DNA of 64,000 bases, from contig CAZDHW010000002.1 of the NCBI GenBank assembly GCA_964505415.1, positions 45,226 to 109,225 of the forward strand. The letters run 5' to 3'. This document shows positions 3,795 to 14,339 of the stretch, in pieces (the first letter of the stretch is position 1; each line of letters begins with the position of its first letter). This stretch comes from an uncultured bacterium (GTDB lineage: Bacteria; Hydrothermota; Tepidihabitantia; Tepidihabitantales; DTDR01). The notes under the pieces are model-generated. The model did no database searches. It saw only the letters and a list, made by a program, of their open reading frames with translations, and was not told where the DNA came from. Made by a program: the position numbers and the translations under genes.

Positions 3795-4550
3795 TTATAA
3801 ATCAAGATTAACAATATAGGTGAATTCATCTAATTTAATACTAGCGCTGCCAATAAGAACACCATCAATTGATTCGGTTTTTAATAATTCCCTAATGTTT
3901 TTCTTATTGACACTTCCACCATAAATGATCCGCATGTTTTCACTGGTTTCTTCACCGTAATTATCTTTTATAAAATTGCGAATAAATTGGTGAACTTCAC
4001 TTGCCTCTTCAGGGGTAGCATTTTTGCCAGTCCCGATGGCCCATATGGGTTCATAAGCAATTACCATTCCTTCAATTTTTTTTATATCTTTTAAATCAGC
4101 TTTTAATTGGCTTTCAATAATCGTTAAAGTTTTTCCTGTTTCTCTTTCTTCTAAATTTTCGCCCACACAAAGAATCGGTTTTAAATTAAGACTTAAAACT
4201 TTTTTAATTTTTTTATTTATCATCTCGTCATCTTCGCCAAAATATTTTCTCCTTTCCGAATGACCAATTATCACATACTCACAACCTAAAGCCAAAAGAA
4301 AAAGTGGAGATATTTCACCAGTGAAGGCTCCTTTATCTTCCCAATGGGTATTCTGGGCACCTAATTTTATTCCACTATTTTTAATAATTTCCGAAACTAT
4401 AAAAAGACTAGTAAAAGGCGGGAAAATAACAATTTCTTTGTTTTCAATATTTTTTGCTGCTTTTAATAATTTTTCTATAAATTCTTTACTTTCTAAATGA
4501 TTAAAATTCATTTTCCAATTGCCGCCAATAAAAACTTTCCTTTTTCTCAT
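3795..4550 (-). CDS. tpiA: triosephosphate isomerase
   Basis: MRKRKVFIGGNWKMN... with catalytic-loop motifs (AYEPIWAIGTG, IIYGGSV). Confidence 0.95.
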   Translation of the reverse strand: MRKRKVFIGGNWKMNFNHLESKEFIEKLLKAAKNIENKEIVIFPPFTSLFIVSEIIKNSGIKLGAQNTHWEDKGAFTGEISPLFLLALGCEYVIIGHSERRKYFGEDDEMINKKIKKVLSLNLKPILCVGENLEERETGKTLTIIESQLKADLKDIKKIEGMVIAYEPIWAIGTGKNATPEEASEVHQFIRNFIKDNYGEETSENMRIIYGGSVNKKNIRELLKTESIDGVLIGSASIKLDEFTYIVNLDL

Positions 4551-4554
4551 ATTT

Positions 4555-5721
4555 TCACAAAAGTGCTTTTAGACCCGGTAACTCTTTACCTTCTAAAAAT
4601 TCCAAAGTTGCACCACCAGCCATAGAAAGAAAAGAATATTTATCAGCCAGATTAAATTTATTTATCGCCGAAACAGTATCACCACCACCAGCTAAAGAGA
4701 AAGCTCCTTTGGCGGTTGCCAAAGCAATAGCTTTGGCGACCTCTCGAGTTCCGCACGCAAAAGGTTCAATTTCAAAAATTCCTAAAGGTCCACAAAAAAT
4801 AATAGTTTTTGCTTCAGAAATAATTTTTACATAATGGGCAATTGTTTCTTTGCCGATGTCAACTCCGTAATAATCCTTTCGCATTTCTTTAACCGGAGTA
4901 TTATAATAATGAGCATTTTCTGAAATTTCTGAAGCAATTAAAATATCTGAAGGTAAAACTATTTTTTTTTCTTTAGCTAAAATCTCAGCTTCTTTTAAAA
5001 AGTTTTCTTCATAAAGAGATTTTCCAATTTCGTAATTTAACGCTTTAAAAATAGTGAAAACCACTCCGCCACCTAAAAGGATTTTATCAACCTTAGGCAA
5101 GAGGTTTCTTATTACTCCCAATTTATCTGAGATTTTAGCACCGCCAATTATCAAAACTACTGGTTTTTGAGGTTGTTCAAAAATCTTTTTTAGATTTTCC
5201 ACTTCTTTCAAAAGTTGAAAACCAGCCCCTTTTTCTTTGATAAATTGAGTAATACCCACAATGGAAGCATGAGCTCGATGGCAAGTCGAAAAAGCATCGT
5301 TTACATAAACATCTATCTCTTTAGCTAATTCTTGAGCGAAATTTAAATCGTTTTTTTCTTCTTCATCATAAAATCTTAAATTTTCTAAAAGATAAATCTC
5401 ACCAACTTTTGCTTCCCTTTTGGCCTTTAAAACTTTTTCTCCTATACAATCATCTAAAAAATTTACTTTTTTATTTAAAAGTTTTGTTAAATGAATAGCT
5501 ATAGGTGATAAAGAAAATTCACCTGTTTTTTTTCCTTTTGGACGGCCAAGATGGGAAGCAATAAAAATAGTGCACGGATAATTTAAAAGGTAATTTATAG
5601 TTTCTAAAGAAGCTTTAATCCGAGAATCATCAAGAATTTTCCCTTCTTTTAAAGGGACATTATAATCTACTCGTAAAAATATTTTTTTGTATTTTAAGTC
5701 GATATCTTTTATTGATTTCAT
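4555..5721 (-). CDS. pgk: phosphoglycerate kinase
   Basis: 388 aa with PGK signatures (RVDYNVP, ASHLGRP, GGGDTV). Confidence 0.95.
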   Translation of the reverse strand: MKSIKDIDLKYKKIFLRVDYNVPLKEGKILDDSRIKASLETINYLLNYPCTIFIASHLGRPKGKKTGEFSLSPIAIHLTKLLNKKVNFLDDCIGEKVLKAKREAKVGEIYLLENLRFYDEEEKNDLNFAQELAKEIDVYVNDAFSTCHRAHASIVGITQFIKEKGAGFQLLKEVENLKKIFEQPQKPVVLIIGGAKISDKLGVIRNLLPKVDKILLGGGVVFTIFKALNYEIGKSLYEENFLKEAEILAKEKKIVLPSDILIASEISENAHYYNTPVKEMRKDYYGVDIGKETIAHYVKIISEAKTIIFCGPLGIFEIEPFACGTREVAKAIALATAKGAFSLAGGGDTVSAINKFNLADKYSFLSMAGGATLEFLEGKELPGLKALL

Positions 5722-5729
5722 ATTTTAAG

Positions 5730-6740
5730 TTATTTTAATTTTTGACCAACCAAACAAGCCAGATCCACCACTCGGCAAGAGTAACCCCATTCATTATCGT
5801 ACCAACCATAAACCTTCACAAAATTTCCAGCGATTACTTCGGTTAATGTAGCATCAAAAATACAAGAATAAGGGTTACCAATAAAATCTTGAGAAACTAA
5901 TTCTTCTTCCACATACTGAAGATATTTGTGCAAATAGGTTTCACTTGCTCTTTTAAAAGCTTCGTTTACCTCTTCTTTTGTTGTTTTCTTTTCTACCTCG
6001 CAGGCAAGGTCAACAAGGGAAACGTTAGCTACTGGTACTCGTAAAGCAATGCCCGAAATTTTCCCTTTTAATTCTGGGAAAATAACACCTATCATTTTGG
6101 CGGCACCGGTAGAAGTGGGAATTATTGAGAGAGCACAGGCACGAGCCCGGCGAAGATCTTTATGAGGAGCATCTAAAATTTTTTGGTCATTAGTATAAGC
6201 ATGAACAGTCGTCATATAGCCGCGTTTAATTTTGAAATTTTCGTGAAGGACCTTTATTAATGGCAAAAGACAGTTAGTTGTACAAGAAGCGTTAGAAATG
6301 ATGTGGTCTTTTTCTGGTTCATAATCATTTTCATTAATACCTAAAACGAAAGACTTAATTTCCTTTTCATCCTTGGGTGGAGCGGTTAAAATCACTTTTT
6401 TAGCCCCATTTTTAATATGATATTCTAATTCTTCTTTTTTCCGAAAAACTCCAGTAGCCTCAATAACAATATCAACATTTAAATTACCCCAAGGTAAATT
6501 TTTAAGCTCTTTTTCGTTAAAAACTAAAATCTCTTTACCGTTAATAATTATTCGGTCTTCCAATCCTTTAACTTGGTAAGGAACTTGACGATGAACCGAA
6601 TCATATTTAAAAAGGTGAGCTAAAATTTTTCCATTAGCGATATCATTAATAGCTACAAATTCTAATTCTTTTCTTTCTAAACCAATTCTTAAAACTAATC
6701 GACCGATTCTTCCAAAACCATTTATCGCTACTTTTGCCAT
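5730..6740 (-). CDS. gap: glyceraldehyde-3-phosphate dehydrogenase, type I
   Basis: MAKVAINGFGRIGR Rossmann N-terminus and the ASCTTNCL active-site cysteine motif. It heads the gap-pgk-tpiA-secG-rplU minus-strand operon. Confidence 0.95.
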   Translation of the reverse strand: MAKVAINGFGRIGRLVLRIGLERKELEFVAINDIANGKILAHLFKYDSVHRQVPYQVKGLEDRIIINGKEILVFNEKELKNLPWGNLNVDIVIEATGVFRKKEELEYHIKNGAKKVILTAPPKDEKEIKSFVLGINENDYEPEKDHIISNASCTTNCLLPLIKVLHENFKIKRGYMTTVHAYTNDQKILDAPHKDLRRARACALSIIPTSTGAAKMIGVIFPELKGKISGIALRVPVANVSLVDLACEVEKKTTKEEVNEAFKRASETYLHKYLQYVEEELVSQDFIGNPYSCIFDATLTEVIAGNFVKVYGWYDNEWGYSCRVVDLACLVGQKLK

Positions 6741-6817
6741 ATTTACCCCTCCCTTATAATAATCTTTTATTATAAAGAAACTTGAAAAAAAATCAAGTTT
6801 TAGTATTCTATTTAACT

Positions 6818-8206
6818 ATGAAGGTAATTCTTGCAGGTTATAATGTAGATATTAAGATTCTGAAAAAGATTTCTGAAAAATATAAAAAATTTTTGACTCC
6901 AGAAACTTTTTCTTGTGCCTATGCCCGTATTAGTCGTTACGATTTATCTGTTGACAAATTGAGAGAAAAAGCTTTAAAAGAGATTAAAGAAGCAAGAGAA
7001 ACAAACAAGAGAATTATTTTTGAAATGGGACATTCTTCGGTTGCTGAGCACGCCGTTTTCAATATCGATATTATTGAAATATCTCGTTTGGCGGTTGAGG
7101 AAGTTGAGCATTTTCGTTTGGCTTCTTATACAGAAAAATCGCAAAGATATGTGAAACTAAAAGAAGGTTTTTTTATCCCACCAGAAATAAAAAATAGTAA
7201 AATAGAAGAAAGATACAAAAAAATTGTAAAAAAATTATTTTTTACTTATGAAAATTTTATAAAAAAGGGAATACCAAAGGAAGATGCTCGTTATCTTTTG
7301 CCTTTAGCTACTTATACTCAATTAGGGATGACAGTAAATGCTCGCACTTTAGAATACATGCTAAGGAAATTTGCTGCTTCTTATCTATTAGAAATAAAAG
7401 AATTGGGGAGAAAAATTTTTAACAAAGTAAAAAGAGTTGCCCCATCCCTTTTGCGTTATTATTTACCAACCGATTATGAAATAAAAACCAAGGAAGAATT
7501 AAAAAATCTTTTGCAAAAATTTTCTTATTTTATTTCTGAAAAAGAAGAAAAGGAAAATGTGAAATTAATTGCTCATTATAATAACGATTTAATCCCTAAA
7601 GCAATTTTGTATCCTTATTTTTCTAATCCTTTTCCTAAAAATTGGCAATTAAAAGAAGAAGAAAAACTTACCATCATTAAAAAAAGTTTAGAGTATTTAG
7701 AATTTTATGATGCAGTTTTGAGAGAATTTGAATTAGGATTTTTAGTTTTTGAAGTTATTCTCAGTGCGGCTGCTTTTGCTCAATTAAAAAGGCATCGTTT
7801 AATAACATTAATAACCCAGCCTTACAATTTGGATTTAAAATTTACTATTCCACCAACAATAATTGAAAAAAATTTAGAAAAGGAATTTAAAGAAGCAGTA
7901 GCTGAAGTTGAAGAATTTTATGTTCTTTTAAGGGATAAATTAGATCCTTATAATGCTCAATACATCCTAACCAATGCCCATCGACGAAGAGTGTTGGTAG
8001 GAGTAAATCCTCGGGAGCTTTATCATTTTTCTCGTTTAAGAGAAGATAAAGACGCCCAATGGGAGATAAAAATAATTGCCCAGAAAATGAGCCAATTGGC
8101 AAAAGAAAAAATGCCGGAAATATTTCTTCTTCTCGGCGGTAAAGATAAATATCCCGAAATATATTTTTCAGTTTATCAAAAATATCCCAAATTTTTTCCT
8201 AAATAA
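6818..8206 (+). CDS. thyX: flavin-dependent thymidylate synthase ThyX, tandem (duplicated) ThyX-domain protein
   Basis: Two ThyX-like halves. Half 1 has GHSSVAEHAVF...EHFRLASYTEKSQRY and half 2 has LKRHRLITLITQPYN...NPRELYHFSRLREDKDAQWEIKIIAQKM. ATG at 6818 (MKVILAGY) is preferred over the TTG at 6782 used by the ORF track. Confidence 0.8.
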   Translation: MKVILAGYNVDIKILKKISEKYKKFLTPETFSCAYARISRYDLSVDKLREKALKEIKEARETNKRIIFEMGHSSVAEHAVFNIDIIEISRLAVEEVEHFRLASYTEKSQRYVKLKEGFFIPPEIKNSKIEERYKKIVKKLFFTYENFIKKGIPKEDARYLLPLATYTQLGMTVNARTLEYMLRKFAASYLLEIKELGRKIFNKVKRVAPSLLRYYLPTDYEIKTKEELKNLLQKFSYFISEKEEKENVKLIAHYNNDLIPKAILYPYFSNPFPKNWQLKEEEKLTIIKKSLEYLEFYDAVLREFELGFLVFEVILSAAAFAQLKRHRLITLITQPYNLDLKFTIPPTIIEKNLEKEFKEAVAEVEEFYVLLRDKLDPYNAQYILTNAHRRRVLVGVNPRELYHFSRLREDKDAQWEIKIIAQKMSQLAKEKMPEIFLLLGGKDKYPEIYFSVYQKYPKFFPK

Positions 8207-8296: not shown

Positions 8297-9454
8297 ATGA
8301 AAATAAAATTAGGGAAGAGATTTCTGATTGTTTATTTTATTCTTATTTTTTTAATATTAACTGCTATATTTTTTATTATTTCTTCTTTCCTTTTTAAGAA
8401 GTTAGAAGAGGAAATAACTTTGCGTTCACGCATTTTTGCTAAGTACATGTCGAAAGTTCAAGAAGAAGATTTGGAAAGTAGCTCCTATGAATTAGACATA
8501 ATTTTTGAAGAGGTGATTAAAAAAATTGATTTTCCTGTTGTTGTCATTGATGATAAAGGTGAAATTATTGCTTATCGGAATGTTGGTAAAAATCTAACTA
8601 AAGAAATATTAAAAAAGAAACTAGAACAATTAAAAAAAGAAAAACCGCCAATTCCTATTTTGGTTAATATTGGTGATACTACCAAATTTTTAGGTGAAAT
8701 TTATTATGGTCTTTCGCCAACAGCTAGATTTGTTCGTTTTTATCCTTATTATCAAATTTTGATTTTAGTTTTATTTATATTTTTGGGAATTTGGGCAATT
8801 TTTATTTATAAAAAAAGAGAAGAAGAAAAATTATGGACTTTTTTAGCAAAAGAAACTGCCCACCAGATGGCAACGCCCCTTTCTTCACTGATTGGATGGC
8901 TTTTGGCGATTAAAGATAAAATTGAAGAAAAATATTACGAAGAGATGATCTTAGATATTCAAAAAATGGAAATGGTTTTGGAAAGATTCTCGCGTATCGG
9001 TTTACCCCCAAAATTGGAGAATTTACCAATAAAAGAAATTATTGAAAAAGTTTGCGAACATTTTAAAAGAAGATTGCCACCAAATATTCAACTGGTTTTA
9101 GATTTAAAAACCAATCCTTTATTACCTTTAGATGAAGTACTTTTTAATTGGAGTTTAGAAAATCTTCTTAAAAATAGTATTGATGCTATTGGTTCTAATC
9201 CGGGTCGGATTGAAATCAAGGAGAATATTAATGATCGAAATTATGAAATTCAGATCATTGACAATGGCGAAGGGATTGACAAAAAAATTAGAGGCAAAAT
9301 TTTCAAAGCTGGTGTTACCAGTAAAAAATATGGTTGGGGTATTGGTTTATCGTTAGCCAAAAGAATTATTGAGGAATATCACTGCGGAAAATTATTATTA
9401 AGGGAATCAAAGAAAGGAAAAACAGTTTTTTCCATTATTTTAAAGAAAAAATGA
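8297..9454 (+). CDS. sensor histidine kinase (two TM helices, HisKA + HATPase_c); PorY-like partner of the downstream regulator
   Basis: H-box TAHQMATPLSSLIGWL, N-box NLLKNSIDA and G-boxes IDNGEGI / GWGIGLSLAK. Two hydrophobic segments near the N-terminus. Stop overlaps the next start (ATGA). Confidence 0.85.
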   Translation: MKIKLGKRFLIVYFILIFLILTAIFFIISSFLFKKLEEEITLRSRIFAKYMSKVQEEDLESSSYELDIIFEEVIKKIDFPVVVIDDKGEIIAYRNVGKNLTKEILKKKLEQLKKEKPPIPILVNIGDTTKFLGEIYYGLSPTARFVRFYPYYQILILVLFIFLGIWAIFIYKKREEEKLWTFLAKETAHQMATPLSSLIGWLLAIKDKIEEKYYEEMILDIQKMEMVLERFSRIGLPPKLENLPIKEIIEKVCEHFKRRLPPNIQLVLDLKTNPLLPLDEVLFNWSLENLLKNSIDAIGSNPGRIEIKENINDRNYEIQIIDNGEGIDKKIRGKIFKAGVTSKKYGWGIGLSLAKRIIEEYHCGKLLLRESKKGKTVFSIILKKK

Positions 9455-10962
9455 AAATCCTTTGGATTGATGATGAAATTGAACTTTTAAAACCTTTTAT
9501 CTATTTTCTTAAAGAAAAAGGGTACGAAATAAAAGAAGTGAATAATGGCATTGAAGGTTTAAATAAAATAAAAGAAGAAAATTTTGATTTAGTCTTTTTA
9601 GACGAGATGATGCCCGGTTTAGATGGTTTGGAAATTGCTCGGAAGATAAAAAATTATGATCCCAATATTTTTGTAGTGATGGTTACAAAAGTAAGTGACG
9701 AAGATTTCATTGATGAAGCCTATGCCAATTTGGTTGATGATTTTATCCTTAAACCTTTAAATCCAGTCCAGATTTTGGCCGTAATTAAAAGGTTATTAGA
9801 AAAAAAAGAAATCTTTAAAGAAAACTTAGTGCGTGAGTATTTAAAAATTCTTTCCGGAACAAAAGATTTTGAAACTTTTGAAGAATGGTGTGATTTTTAT
9901 CAACAATTGATAAAATGGCGAGAATATCTTAATCGATTTTCTTTAAATGATTTAAAAGAAAGTTACGAAGATATTTTAAAAGAGGGTAATGAAAATTTTG
10001 CTACCTTTATTGAGGAGAATTATTGTGATTGGTTAAAAAATAAAAAAGGGCCAATACTTTCTCACCAATTTTTTGAAAATTTTGTTAAGCCCCATTTGGA
10101 TAAATTGCCTTTATACTGGATAATTTTTGATTCGCTCCGGCTTGATCAGTGGTATTTTCTTTATAACATTTTGAAAGAACATTTTTTAATAAAACAGAAT
10201 TTTTATTGTTCGATTCTTCCTTCAGCAACACCTTATGCTCGTAATGCTTTGTTAAGCGGTTTAACACCGAAAAAAATTTTTGAATATTATCCAGAATATT
10301 GGGTATTTACTGATGTTGGACAAAATCGCTACGAAGAACAGCTTTTTCAAAAACTCTTAGCTAGAGAAAGAATTTCTTTAAAATATTTTTATTTAAAAAT
10401 TATAAGGATGGAAGACCTAATTGAGAAATTTGACTATCTTCTAAAGCCTGACGTTGGGATTGTGATAGTCATCATAAATTTTTTAGATTTTCTTATCCAT
10501 TCAGCTCGGGAAACTTTGTTTATTAAAGAAATTGCTGAAAATGAAGATTCTTTGTTAGAATTTACTAAAATCTGGTTTAACTCTTCTTTAATTTTTCAAT
10601 TTTTAAAAAAACTTAAAGAGAACGAGAGAAAAATAATTATTACTTCCGATCACGGATTTATTAAAGTGAAAAGGCCGACAATTATTTATGGAGGGCGAGA
10701 GATTTCGCCTAATCTTCGTTACAAATCAGGCGGTGGAATAACCATTGATAAAAAAGCTGCCTGGCTTTTAGAACCGAAGGAATTAGAATTGCCACAAGAA
10801 TTTTTGGGTGAAAAATACGCCATTTGTAAAAGCGATTATTATTTTATTTATCCTACCAAACCTAAAGAATATGAAAAAATTTATAAATTGACTTATCAAC
10901 ATGGAGGTATTTCACTTCAGGAAATGATTTTACCGGTAGGAATTTTATACCCCCTTGATTAA
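9451..10962 (+). CDS. response regulator with CheY-like receiver fused to a PglZ/alkaline-phosphatase-like effector domain (PorX-like)
   Basis: Receiver region MKILWIDDEIELL...DLVFLDEMMPGLDGLE...VVMVTK. C-terminal AP-superfamily motifs IIFDSLRLDQW, IIITSDHGF and YQHGGISLQEMILP as in PglZ. 503 aa, against roughly 518 aa recalled for PorX of P. gingivalis. Confidence 0.7.
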   Translation: MKILWIDDEIELLKPFIYFLKEKGYEIKEVNNGIEGLNKIKEENFDLVFLDEMMPGLDGLEIARKIKNYDPNIFVVMVTKVSDEDFIDEAYANLVDDFILKPLNPVQILAVIKRLLEKKEIFKENLVREYLKILSGTKDFETFEEWCDFYQQLIKWREYLNRFSLNDLKESYEDILKEGNENFATFIEENYCDWLKNKKGPILSHQFFENFVKPHLDKLPLYWIIFDSLRLDQWYFLYNILKEHFLIKQNFYCSILPSATPYARNALLSGLTPKKIFEYYPEYWVFTDVGQNRYEEQLFQKLLARERISLKYFYLKIIRMEDLIEKFDYLLKPDVGIVIVIINFLDFLIHSARETLFIKEIAENEDSLLEFTKIWFNSSLIFQFLKKLKENERKIIITSDHGFIKVKRPTIIYGGREISPNLRYKSGGGITIDKKAAWLLEPKELELPQEFLGEKYAICKSDYYFIYPTKPKEYEKIYKLTYQHGGISLQEMILPVGILYPLD

Positions 10963-10990
10963 ATTTATAAATTTATTTATAATAAATTTA

Positions 10991-11500
10991 ATGCCTGAAT
11001 TTACTTTTTTAGAAATTTTAAAAAAAGAACATTTTTTGATTGAAAGGGCATTACGAACCATGACTCTTTTGATAGTCAAAGACCAGTATTTAGAAAGAGA
11101 ATTTCAATTGGTTTACCAGATAATAAAAGATTTTGTAGAAGATAATCATTGTGCCAAAGAAGAAGAGATTTTATTTCCATTAATAAGAGAATACGAAATT
11201 GATGCCCAATTGGTGATGGTTAATGAGTCAGAAAAAAGAAAAGAAATTATTGAAACCTTGGAAAAAGGATTAAAAGATTTGGATAAAGAGAAATTTTTGG
11301 TAGGTTTACAAGATTTTATAGAAATTTTTGCTCGTCATATTTTTAAGGAAGAGGGTCTTATTTTTCCTGCCTGCGAAGCTCTTTTACCATCGGATATTAA
11401 TGAAAAAATTGTTAAAGATTTTAAAGAATATGAAAGAGATAACAGGGATTATGATTATTTTCTAAAAATCGTTGAAGATTTAGAAAAGATTATTTTCTAA
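10991..11500 (+). CDS. hemerythrin-like (HHE cation-binding) domain protein
   Basis: Two H..KEE..(L/I)FP motifs ([22 protein letters not shown]). ATG at 10991 is preferred over the upstream TTG, which would overlap the regulator's stop. Confidence 0.6.
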
Positions 11501-11501
11501 A

Positions 11502-14339
11502 ATGACTGAAAACAATTATATTTTTATTAAAGGTGCTCGGGAACATAATTTGAAAAATCTTACTTTGAAAATTCCACGTAACAAAATGGTAGTAATTACA
11601 GGGATTTCTGGTTCAGGTAAGTCTTCTTTGGCTTTCGATACTATTTATGCTGAAGGTCAAAGAAGGTATATTGAATCACTTTCTTCTTACGCTCGGCAGT
11701 TTTTAGGAGTATTAGAAAAACCAGATGTTGATTATATTGAGGGGCTTTCGCCCGCAATTGCCATTGAGCAGCGGACAGCAGCTAAAAATCCTCGTTCAAC
11801 TGTTGGTACCGTAACGGAAATTTATGATTATTTACGGGTTCTTTTTGCTCGTTTAGGAAAACCTTTCTGCCCATATTGTAATAAAGAAATTGCTTCTCAA
11901 ACATTAGACCAAATAATCGACCAAATCTCTTCTTATCCGGAAAATACTAAATTAATAATATTGGCACCTGTTGTTAGGGGAAGAAAAGGTGAATATCAAA
12001 CTCTTTTGGAAAAAATAAAAAAAAGGGGTTTTTTAAGGGTAAGAGTGGATGGAAAAATTTATGAGATTTCGGAAGTTAAAAATTTAGAAAAATATAAAAA
12101 ACATAATATTGAAATTCTTATCGATCGGTTAGTTTTATTAGAAGAAAATAAAAAACGATTGGCTGATTCGATAGAATTAGCATTAAAAGAGGGGCAAGGC
12201 TTATGTGTAGTGATTTTTGATGAGAAAGAGGAAAAAATTTTTTCTGAAAAGTTTGCCTGTGTCGATTGTGGTTTTTCTTATGAAGAAATTTCTCCCCGGC
12301 TTTTCTCTTTTAATTCACCTTACGGTGCTTGTTCAGCATGTCACGGCTTAGGGACAAAAATGGAAATTGATCCTGAAAGATTAATTGTTGACCCAAAGCT
12401 TTCCATTAATGAAGGAGTAATTGAAGTTTGGGGAGAGCCCAAAGGCCGTTGGTTTACTTCGGTTTTAAAAGCTTTGGCAAAAAATTATGGTTTTTCTTTA
12501 AATACTCCGTGGGAAAAACTGCCCAAGAAGGTGAAGGAGATAATTCTGTATGGTAGCAATGAAGAAATTTTGGTGGAGCACGAAAGATGGGACGGTACTC
12601 ACTACAAATTTTATGAAGAGTTTGAAGGGGTTATTCCCCATTTAATGCGAATTTATCAAACTACCGAATCAGAAAGTACCCGGGAATGGATCGAGAGATA
12701 TATGTCAATTTTACCTTGTCCCGAATGCGGTGGAGCACGCCTTAAAAAAGAGGCACTCTCAGTTAAAATTAACGGTTATTCTATTTATGACATTTGTAGA
12801 TTATCTATTAGAGAATGTTATCAATTTTTTGATAATTTAAAATTAAATGAACAAGAAAAAAAGATTGCTCAGGAATTAATTAATGAAATTAAAAAAAGAT
12901 TAAACTTTTTGATTGAAGTAGGTGTTGATTATTTAACTTTAGAAAGAAGAACTGATACCTTAGGAGGTGGTGAAGAACAACGAGTGCGGTTAGCAACGCA
13001 AATTGGCTCAGGTTTAGTTGGCGTAACTTATATTTTAGATGAACCCAGTATTGGCTTACATATGCGAGATAACCATAAGCTAATTCAGACATTATTAAGA
13101 TTAAGAGATTTAGGAAATACAGTTATAGTGGTGGAACATGATCGGGATACAATTTTAGCTAGCGACTATGTAATTGATTTAGGTCCGGGAGCTGGAGAAA
13201 AAGGTGGATATATTGTGGCTACTGGTACACCGGAAGAAATTATGAATAATCCCAACTCCTTAACCGGTGCCTATTTAAGTGGTAAGAGAGAAATTCCTTT
13301 ACCTGAAAAGAGAAGGAAAGGAAACGGTAAGTTTTTAATAGTGAAAGGTTGTTCGGAAAATAATTTAAAAAATATTGATGTTACAATTCCTTTAGGCATG
13401 TTTGTCTGTCTTACTGGTGTTTCCGGTTCGGGAAAAAGTACTTTTATGAATGATATCCTTTACAAAGCCTTAGCCGAAAAATTTTATGGTTCAAGAGAAA
13501 AACCCGGCAAATTTAAAGAAATTATTGGTTGGGAAGAAATTGATAAAGTGGTAAATATCGATCAGTCACCTATTGGTCGAACCCCTCGGTCTAATCCGGC
13601 AACTTATACTAACGTTTTTACACCAATAAGAGAACTTTTTGCTCAAACCAAAGAAGCCAAGATGAGAGGTTATTCTCCAGGAAGATTTTCTTTTAATGTT
13701 CGCGGTGGTCGTTGTGAAAACTGTGGTGGCGATGGAATTAAAAAAATTGAAATGCATTTTTTGCCAGATGTATACGTGACTTGTGAAGTTTGTAAAGGGA
13801 AAAGATATAATCGGGAAACTTTAGAAATAAGATATAAAGGAAAAAATATTTATGATGTTTTGGAAATGACTGTAAATGAGGCTTTAGAATTTTTCTATAA
13901 TATTCCAGCAATAAGAAGAAAATTAGAGATGTTGCGGGACGTAGGATTAGGTTACATAAAATTAGGACAGCCAGCCACTACTTTGTCTGGTGGCGAAGCT
14001 CAAAGGGTTAAATTAGCAAGAGAATTATCAAAAATTGGTACCGGAAAAACTTTATATCTATTAGATGAACCAACTACGGGTCTTCATTTTGAAGATATTC
14101 GATTATTGTTAATTGTTCTTAATCGGTTGGTGGATAAAGGTAACACAGTACTTGTTATTGAGCATAATTTGGATGTGATAAAATGTGCCGATTGGATAAT
14201 TGATTTAGGACCAGAAGGAGGCGAAAATGGTGGTTATATTGTTGCTTGTGGTACGCCCGAGGAAATTGCTCGCTGTGAAAAATCCTATACTGGAAAATTT
14301 TTAAGAGAAGTATTAAGAAGACACGGAATTCAATTCTAA
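11502..14339 (+). CDS. uvrA: excinuclease ABC subunit A
   Basis: 945 aa with two ABC ATPase modules ([19 protein letters not shown]; LSGGE signature twice) and zinc-finger CxxC pairs. Confidence 0.97.

Follow-up and report, generated by a model that had tools for sequence, protein, structure and literature searches.

How can a flavin-dependent thymidylate synthase (ThyX, or FDTS) work when its chain holds two copies of the ThyX domain and neither copy carries an intact family signature? The question is raised by thyX at positions 6818..8206 (+ strand, stop codon TAA at 8204-8206) of a 64,000-nucleotide stretch of contig CAZDHW010000002.1, from an uncultured bacterium of the Hydrothermota (assembly GCA_964505415.1); this whole stretch is referred to here as the 64-kb window. 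The gene encodes a two-domain protein of 462 amino acids (aa) in which each half has lost what the other half keeps. The answer favored here, with good confidence, is that the protein is a housekeeping ThyX in a fused form, two chains of which would pair to give two composite active sites; this assembly and the activity we infer from the sequence of the chain and from published subunit assignments.

The presence of two ThyX units is apparent from profile searches. The whole protein matches the Pfam Thy1 profile (PF02511) in two stretches at 227.5 bits (cutoff 24.8) and the NCBIfam equivalog model for thyX (TIGR02170), also in two stretches, at 150.2 bits (cutoff 87.9). A first-pass annotation of this DNA had proposed a tandem protein with a full ThyX fold in both halves, to be checked by separate alignment of each half to PF02511. 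Both halves match when searched alone, the N-half at 143 bits (aa 28-210, profile positions 9-191 of 191, E = 9.9e-42) and the C-half at 92 bits (aa 287-434, profile positions 38-191 of 191, E = 5.4e-26). The claim of full-length alignment thus stands for the N-half but not for the C-half, of which the first quarter is unrecognisable by sequence, because the PF02511 match begins at position 38 and the overlap in a profile-profile comparison of the two halves is partial. That comparison (97.7% probability, E = 1.5e-12, 24% identity) aligned aa 76-224 with aa 304-448 only, and BLASTP of one half against the other gave 25% identity at E = 0.014. Given an identity of 24-25%, the halves appear to derive from an old duplication. 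The N-terminal Thy1 domain (aa 28-210, 6899..7447, + strand) holds the residues of the loop-bearing and third subunits of a canonical ThyX active site, and the C-terminal Thy1 domain (aa 287-434, 7676..8119, + strand) holds those of the subunit bearing the Arg-His-Arg (RHR) motif. Between the Pfam matches lies an inter-domain linker (aa 211-247, 7448..7558, + strand) that includes a helix at aa 219-234 in an AlphaFold2 model.

The AlphaFold2 model, built from a 48-sequence alignment, has a mean predicted local distance difference test score (pLDDT) of 82.5 and a predicted template modelling score (pTM) of 0.81. The order of strands and helices in the model is the same for the N-half and the C-half, and the fold of the C-half is therefore probably complete. 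A Foldseek search of the PDB with this model returned top matches that were all ThyX (probability 1.00), with template modelling (TM) scores of 0.6-0.79 on the target and ~0.35 on the query, as one half was matched per alignment. The PDB sequence search likewise matched two stretches and recovered single-domain ThyX chains of 216-270 aa only, plus one chance match. No fused or double-length ThyX chain was found in either the PDB sequence search or the Foldseek search, and no matched chain exceeded ~270 aa.

Within neither domain is there a contiguous RHRxxxxxxS signature, which is complete only across both halves. The strings that the first-pass annotation had quoted are all present: HFRLASYTEKSQRY at aa 98-111 of the N-half, and KRHRLITLIT at aa 324-333 and HFSRLREDKDAQWEI at aa 403-417 of the C-half. 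The N-half reads HFRLASYTEKS, in which the Ser is kept and the first two residues of the motif are lost, and the C-half reads RHRLITLIT, in which RHR is kept without the Ser or the Arg of the loop. To place these and other residues, both halves were mapped onto the Thermotoga maritima (Tm) enzyme TM0449, for which residues 46-202 were checked against the alignments of the PDB search. Conservation was scored in two sets, consisting of 119 close family members and of 146 representatives of clusters at 50% identity, which are 38-52% identical to the query.

In Tm numbering, conservation in the N-half reaches a fraction of 1.0 among the 119 homologues for S30, H53, E58, H59, R80, E86, S88, R90, Y91, R147, N163 and R165, and this half no longer has R74 (replaced by Glu), Q75, R78 or H79. 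In the same set the C-half keeps E58, Q75, R78, H79, R80, Y91, R165, R174, Q180 and W181 at a fraction of 1.0 and has lost H53, E86, S88, R90 and R147. The same split recurs in the 146 representatives, where the kept positions are conserved in 141-146 of the sequences (137 for N163 of the C-half) and the lost positions have no majority residue, and thus appear to drift freely. An RHR motif is present in the N-half of five representatives, but in none of these does the C-half have H53, R147 or an intact loop, and no intermediate or reversed pattern occurs among the 146. Of the residues that contact flavin adenine dinucleotide (FAD) and deoxyuridine monophosphate (dUMP), namely H53, S/T55, Q75, R78, H79, R80, E86, S88, R90, Y91, R147, R165 and R174, each is found once per chain and is conserved in at least 143 of the 146. 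Complementary degeneration, which had been proposed for the signature, therefore extends to every catalytic position checked. Wherever this asymmetric pattern is invariant, the window protein agrees with the family; in its own numbering the invariant residues are S39, H72, S74, E77, H78, S89, R90, R100, E106, S108, R110, Y111, R158, N174 and R176 of the N-half, and Q322, K324, R325, H326, R327, R399, R408, Q414 and W415 of the C-half.

The individual elements, all on the + strand, follow the same division. In the N-half, Ser89-Arg90 (7082..7087) is invariant in the 48-sequence alignment and lies 10 residues before the third Arg of the motif; we take it to be, probably, the counterpart of Ser86-Arg87 of the Mycobacterium tuberculosis (Mtb) enzyme, in which Arg87 binds dUMP as a residue of the loop-bearing subunit (PMC6514825). 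The degenerate RHR that follows, His98-Phe99-Arg100 (7109..7117), conserves only its third Arg, with no majority residue at positions 98 and 99 and Arg at position 100 in 145 of the 146 representatives. The active-site loop EKSQRY (7133..7150) is well preserved by contrast with its C-half equivalent, with Glu106, Ser108, Arg110 and Tyr111 aligned to Tm Glu86, Ser88, Arg90 and Tyr91 of TM0449; the Glu, Ser and Arg are each found in all 146 representatives and the Tyr in 143. The pLDDT of the AlphaFold2 model is low at aa 105-109, as expected of a flexible active-site loop. Arg158 (7289..7291) corresponds to Tm Arg147, a ligand of the dUMP phosphate, and is Arg in 146/146, while its C-half counterpart is Gln381, a position where the Arg has been lost and the family has no majority residue. 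His72 (7031..7033) aligns with Tm His53, the His that stacks on folate and flavin, and is also conserved in every representative; in canonical ThyX this residue is supplied by 'monomer-3' (PMC11940539).

In the C-half, the segment QLKRHR (7781..7798) provides Gln322 and Arg325-His326-Arg327, the equivalents of Tm Gln75 and Arg78-His79-Arg80, and each of the four is invariant (146/146). The RHR motif serves in the binding of FAD and dUMP (PMC6514825, PMC11940539). Directly after it, the degenerate loop LITLITQPY (7799..7825) is two residues shorter and has lost the equivalents of Glu86, Ser88 and Arg90, and its positions are variable across the family with Tyr336 alone conserved. Further downstream, HFSRLREDKDAQWEI (8024..8068) falls in the second stretch of the TM0449 alignment and contains Arg408, equivalent to Tm Arg174, and Gln414-Trp415, equivalent to Gln180-Trp181. 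These are conserved as Arg in 145, Gln in 144 and Trp in 141 of the 146 representatives, and in the T. maritima enzyme Arg174 activates dUMP (PMC8316439).

Why the loss should have fallen in this way is suggested by the architecture of canonical ThyX, a tetramer of 222 symmetry in which three monomers line each of the four active sites (PMC6514825, PMC3498832), as the first-pass annotation had in essence stated in placing the sites at the subunit interfaces of a homotetramer. To one site, a first subunit (A) contributes RHR 95-97 and Arg199 in Mtb numbering, equivalent to Tm R78-R80 and R174; a second (B) contributes Ser71 and Arg190, equivalent to Tm position 55 and R165; and a third (C) contributes the backbone of Gln103 along with Arg87, Ser105, Arg107 and Tyr108 (PMC6514825). 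The Tm equivalents of the subunit C residues are E86, S88, R90 and Y91. The residues of role A are exactly the C-half set, and those of roles B and C are exactly the N-half set. Since in any one chain the RHR and the Ser at opposite ends of the signature serve different active sites (PMC6514825), a split of the motif between the halves costs nothing at the sites that are retained. The earlier description of one canonical motif copy per pair is thus slightly mis-framed, as the two ends of the motif do not belong to the same site.

These assignments suggest a course of events in which an ancient tandem duplication and fusion would have placed two ThyX protomers in one chain, after which the halves would have subfunctionalised. 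In the N-half, the contributions of the loop-bearing subunit (Glu86, Ser88, Arg90, Tyr91, Arg147 and the phosphate Arg, in Tm numbering) and of the third subunit (Ser30, His53, Ser/Thr55 and Arg165) would have survived, and in the C-half that of the RHR-bearing subunit (Gln75, Arg78-His79-Arg80 and Arg174). Two fusion chains would then assemble into a pseudo-tetramer with D2-like packing. A dimer of fusions is the most likely arrangement because the published assignments allot the two sets of residues to separate subunits around a single site, and as a D2 site needs A, B and C from three protomers, two N-halves and two C-halves would build exactly two sites. Each of the two live sites would consist of one C-half and both N-halves in swapped roles, and the two reciprocal sites, lacking every contribution, would be dead. 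The chemistry is predicted to be that of an ordinary ThyX, in which reduced nicotinamide adenine dinucleotide (phosphate), NAD(P)H, reduces FAD and the methylene of methylenetetrahydrofolate (CH2-THF) passes to flavin N5 and from there to C5 of dUMP.

An alternative is that both halves are fully active and that a dimer of fusions has four working sites, as in canonical ThyX. Each half scores far above the Pfam Thy1 threshold, and the equivalents of Glu58, Arg80, Asn163 and Arg165 are kept in both, which would suit such an enzyme. To build the reciprocal site, however, the N-half would have to supply RHR, Gln75 and the Arg174 region, and the C-half the Ser88/Arg90 loop, Arg147 and His53. Almost every one of these residues has been replaced, with free variation across the 146 representatives, the exception being the Arg174 equivalent of the N-half, which is mostly Arg or Lys. 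Four working sites are consequently considered highly unlikely.

Several points nonetheless weigh against the proposed dimer with two live sites. How many chains assemble and how many sites are live is predicted from sequence and from the published subunit assignments, and a live site may pair a C-half with the N-half of its own chain or with that of the partner chain. At the position of Tm Arg174 the N-half has Arg in 84 and Lys in 20 of the 146 representatives (Lys184 in the window protein), and the third Arg of RHR is still present in this half, so that the 'dead' site may retain some ligand affinity. The counterparts given for Tm Ser30 and Mtb Arg87 are probable ones. Finally, the protein may not be the sole thymidylate synthase, as the search for another covered 64 kb of the genome.

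Three substitutions do not follow the general drift. Glu94 (7097-7099), which replaces Tm Arg74, is Glu in 143 of the representatives; Arg302 (7721-7723), in place of Tm Thr55, is Arg in 142; and Lys324 (7787-7789), in place of Tm Phe77, is Lys in 145. They may represent new contacts between the halves or remnants of a re-used pocket. Under the latter possibility the degenerate sites would have been converted to bind a nucleotide allosterically or to dock NAD(P)H or another reductant, making the fusion a regulatory innovation. In addition to the three changed and themselves invariant positions, such a reading can draw on Arg100 of the N-half and the usual Arg or Lys at its Arg174 position, and on the fact that canonical ThyX is without a dedicated NADPH-binding domain (PMC3498832). 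Against this, there is no majority residue at the equivalents of positions 75, 78 and 79 of the N-half or 53, 88, 90 and 147 of the C-half. A reciprocal-pocket core of this kind indicates relaxed constraint and not a new binding site, leaving re-use improbable.

It should also be considered whether the protein makes deoxythymidine monophosphate (dTMP) at all. ThyX-fold paralogues with other substrates exist, and a protein of this kind could instead be, for example, another pyrimidine nucleotide C5-methylase. No second ThyX or ThyA-like sequence was found in the 64-kb window by tblastn with T. maritima ThyX and Escherichia coli ThyA queries; a separate thyA or thyX elsewhere in the genome, which would leave room for such a paralogue, lies outside what the window shows. 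The score of 150 bits on the NCBIfam equivalog model is well beyond the cutoff of 87.9, however, and each listed canonical dUMP- and FAD-contact residue is invariant and present once per chain. The named relatives are all termed 'FAD-dependent thymidylate synthase', though these names are automated. Together these observations make a change of substrate very unlikely, and a fused thymidylate synthase remains the preferred reading.

The two-domain form is widespread. In the main protein collection 5,849 proteins match the query at E<=0.001, and the best 120 of these mostly have 97-100% query coverage and are almost all 459-521 aa in length; those named among the best 120 are FAD-dependent thymidylate synthases of WOR-3, Aminicenantes, Acidobacteriota, Saganbacteria and TA06. 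A scan of 1.84 billion cluster representatives gave 5,305 matches at E<=0.001 and 413 clusters (50% identity) at E<=1e-30, with nearly all of the best 150 representatives at 420-570 aa. At least 585 species in a collection of one genome per species have a relative of the query, and at all but two of the 80 loci kept from that collection the alignment covers query residues 1 to ~450-461. These loci add Omnitrophota, Margulisiibacteriota/WOR-1, Planctomycetia, Syntrophales, Elusimicrobia, Cloacimonadota, Krumholzibacteriota, Auribacterota and Myxococcota to the groups with the fusion. Among the matches listed, the closest named relatives are from WOR-3 at 74-76% identity. The window protein belongs with this family by its two Thy1 domains, its chain length in the ~440-540 aa class and its end-to-end alignment with other members. 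The survey of related genomes that the first-pass annotation had called for therefore recovers the same fusion in at least 585 species genomes, and its description of the fusion as an unusual evolutionary state does not survive the 5,849 matching proteins, the 413 clusters and a pattern that is fixed without intermediates in the 146 representatives.

Two observations concern the margins of this distribution. Fused thyX genes, ~43-45% identical to the query, occur in metagenome-assembled genomes labelled as a Methanosarcinales archaeon (L041) and a Nanoarchaeota archaeon (P0159), which points either to horizontal acquisition by archaea or to contigs that were binned wrongly. One member of 795 aa (P0206) has a LAGLIDADG_3 match at aa 284-339 within an extra stretch of ~330 aa. 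Judged from this domain, the N-half of that protein probably contains an intein that carries a homing endonuclease, in line with fused thyX genes that bear inteins.

The doubled length, and nothing more, might suggest that the long open reading frame (ORF) is an artefact in which a frameshift or an error of sequencing or assembly had joined two adjacent thyX genes. An identical 462-aa product is called on seven public contigs that come independently from ENA, Logan and JGI assemblies, the full-length architecture is shared by thousands of homologues (those listed are 40-91% identical), and the asymmetric residue pattern makes sense only for an obligate pair. The identical contig products and the architecture of the homologues rule out a joining of two genes, which is scarcely credible on any of these grounds.

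The same sources fix the start of the gene, which was delimited from the ORF list, the Pfam and NCBIfam matches and the N-termini of homologues. The ATG at 6818 gives 462 aa, and a TTG upstream at 6782 gives the 474 codons of the ORF list. The consensus N-terminus MKVILAGYNVD of 47 homologues aligned with the window protein supports the ATG. The TTG is the start, from its first base, of a -35-like hexamer, TTGAAA, which is followed by a 16-nt spacer and a -10-like TATTCT whose last base, 6809, lies 8 nt ahead of the ATG. Because of the homologue starts, the calls on seven contigs and the position of the TTG within a -35-like hexamer, thyX is assigned to 6818-8206 with 462 aa. A start at the TTG is ruled out by the homologue N-termini and the 462-aa calls. 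The 474 aa given by the first-pass annotation was thus too long for its own start at 6818, though the protein is, as it stated, about double the length of a normal ThyX. A Shine-Dalgarno sequence is not obvious 5' of the ATG at 6818, and the leader of the thyX transcript may be very short. A 71-aa antisense ORF (7887-8102, - strand) inside the C-half of thyX is unsupported and almost certainly a chance frame in AT-rich DNA.

Relative to the canonical homotetrameric enzymes (T. maritima TM0449, PDB 1O26/1KQ4; M. tuberculosis, 2AF6/3GWC; Helicobacter pylori, 3N3Y), the window protein has the same fold and belongs to the same Pfam and NCBIfam family, and with its halves combined it has the full set of FAD, dUMP and folate contacts. 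Unlike them, it carries two protomers per chain that are ~24% identical, its RHR and Ser are not contiguous, and each half has a partial set; in place of a tetramer with four sites, the residues predict a dimer with two live sites. The two-domain ThyX of WOR-3, Aminicenantes, Omnitrophota, Margulisiibacteriota/Saganbacteria, Planctomycetia and Syntrophales align with it over their full length at 41-91% identity and are of the same length class with the same asymmetric pattern. No difference of substance separates the window copy from these, as it is a WOR-3-like orthologue of low guanine-cytosine content that is 76% identical to named WOR-3 proteins. A functional analogy may be drawn with the dUTPase of herpesviruses (e.g., Epstein-Barr virus), a monomer from the tandem duplication of a protomer with active sites at subunit interfaces, in which complementary motif loss has left fewer composite sites. 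The analogy is functional only, given that fold and chemistry are unrelated; by this parallel, the change from a dUTPase trimer to a monomer with one site would resemble that from a ThyX tetramer to the predicted dimer with two.

No description of a ThyX fusion was found in the open-access full text, reviews and phylogeny papers searched, and the likeliest papers lie outside that set. In 2005 Griffin reportedly purified a double-length ThyX of Chlamydia trachomatis as an active FDTS, and in 2004 Liu & Yang are said to have noted 'distinctive ThyX motifs' in the likewise double-length enzyme of Trichodesmium erythraeum; both may belong to this family. That the C. trachomatis ThyX has been assayed is confirmed from the literature.

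The surroundings of thyX are an ordinary chromosomal, housekeeping context. Upstream and divergent are gap, pgk and tpi (3795-6740, - strand), encoding glyceraldehyde-3-phosphate dehydrogenase, phosphoglycerate kinase and triosephosphate isomerase. The same gap-pgk-tpi/thyX arrangement is found in the WOR-3 genome GCA_026417775.1 (locus L084), where the downstream genes differ. A 5-formyltetrahydrofolate cyclo-ligase, an enzyme of folate one-carbon metabolism, is encoded ~4 kb upstream of thyX (1940-2533); a functional link to thyX is doubtful, with the glycolytic genes and a nucleoside triphosphatase (NTPase) between them. Downstream lie a histidine kinase (HATPase_c) and a 503-aa response regulator that overlap by 4 nt (8297-10962), followed by a hemerythrin-domain protein (10955-11500) and UvrA (11502-14339). 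The output domain of the response regulator is a PglZ (alkaline-phosphatase-like) domain and not a DNA-binding domain.

The two-domain ThyX is a large and routinely annotated family, and the exact protein is present in public assemblies. For genome annotation there is little consequence, as the thyX label is already right. Checks for the RHRxxxxxxS motif will, however, fail on a large, presumably functional subfamily, because two of the four sites can be preserved when a fused pair loses complementary halves of the motif. It may be that no study has yet taken apart the structure or kinetics of a fused ThyX. There is a slim chance that the dead pockets have been re-used as an allosteric nucleotide or reductant-docking site, or that the halving of the sites alters kinetics, for example through half-of-sites coupling; the matter of re-use is left slightly open because the substitutions at Glu94, Arg302 and Lys324 are invariant. 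Should re-use or a kinetic change prove true, the family would constitute a natural experiment on communication between ThyX active sites and would present a distinct drug-target geometry in pathogens with a fused ThyX.

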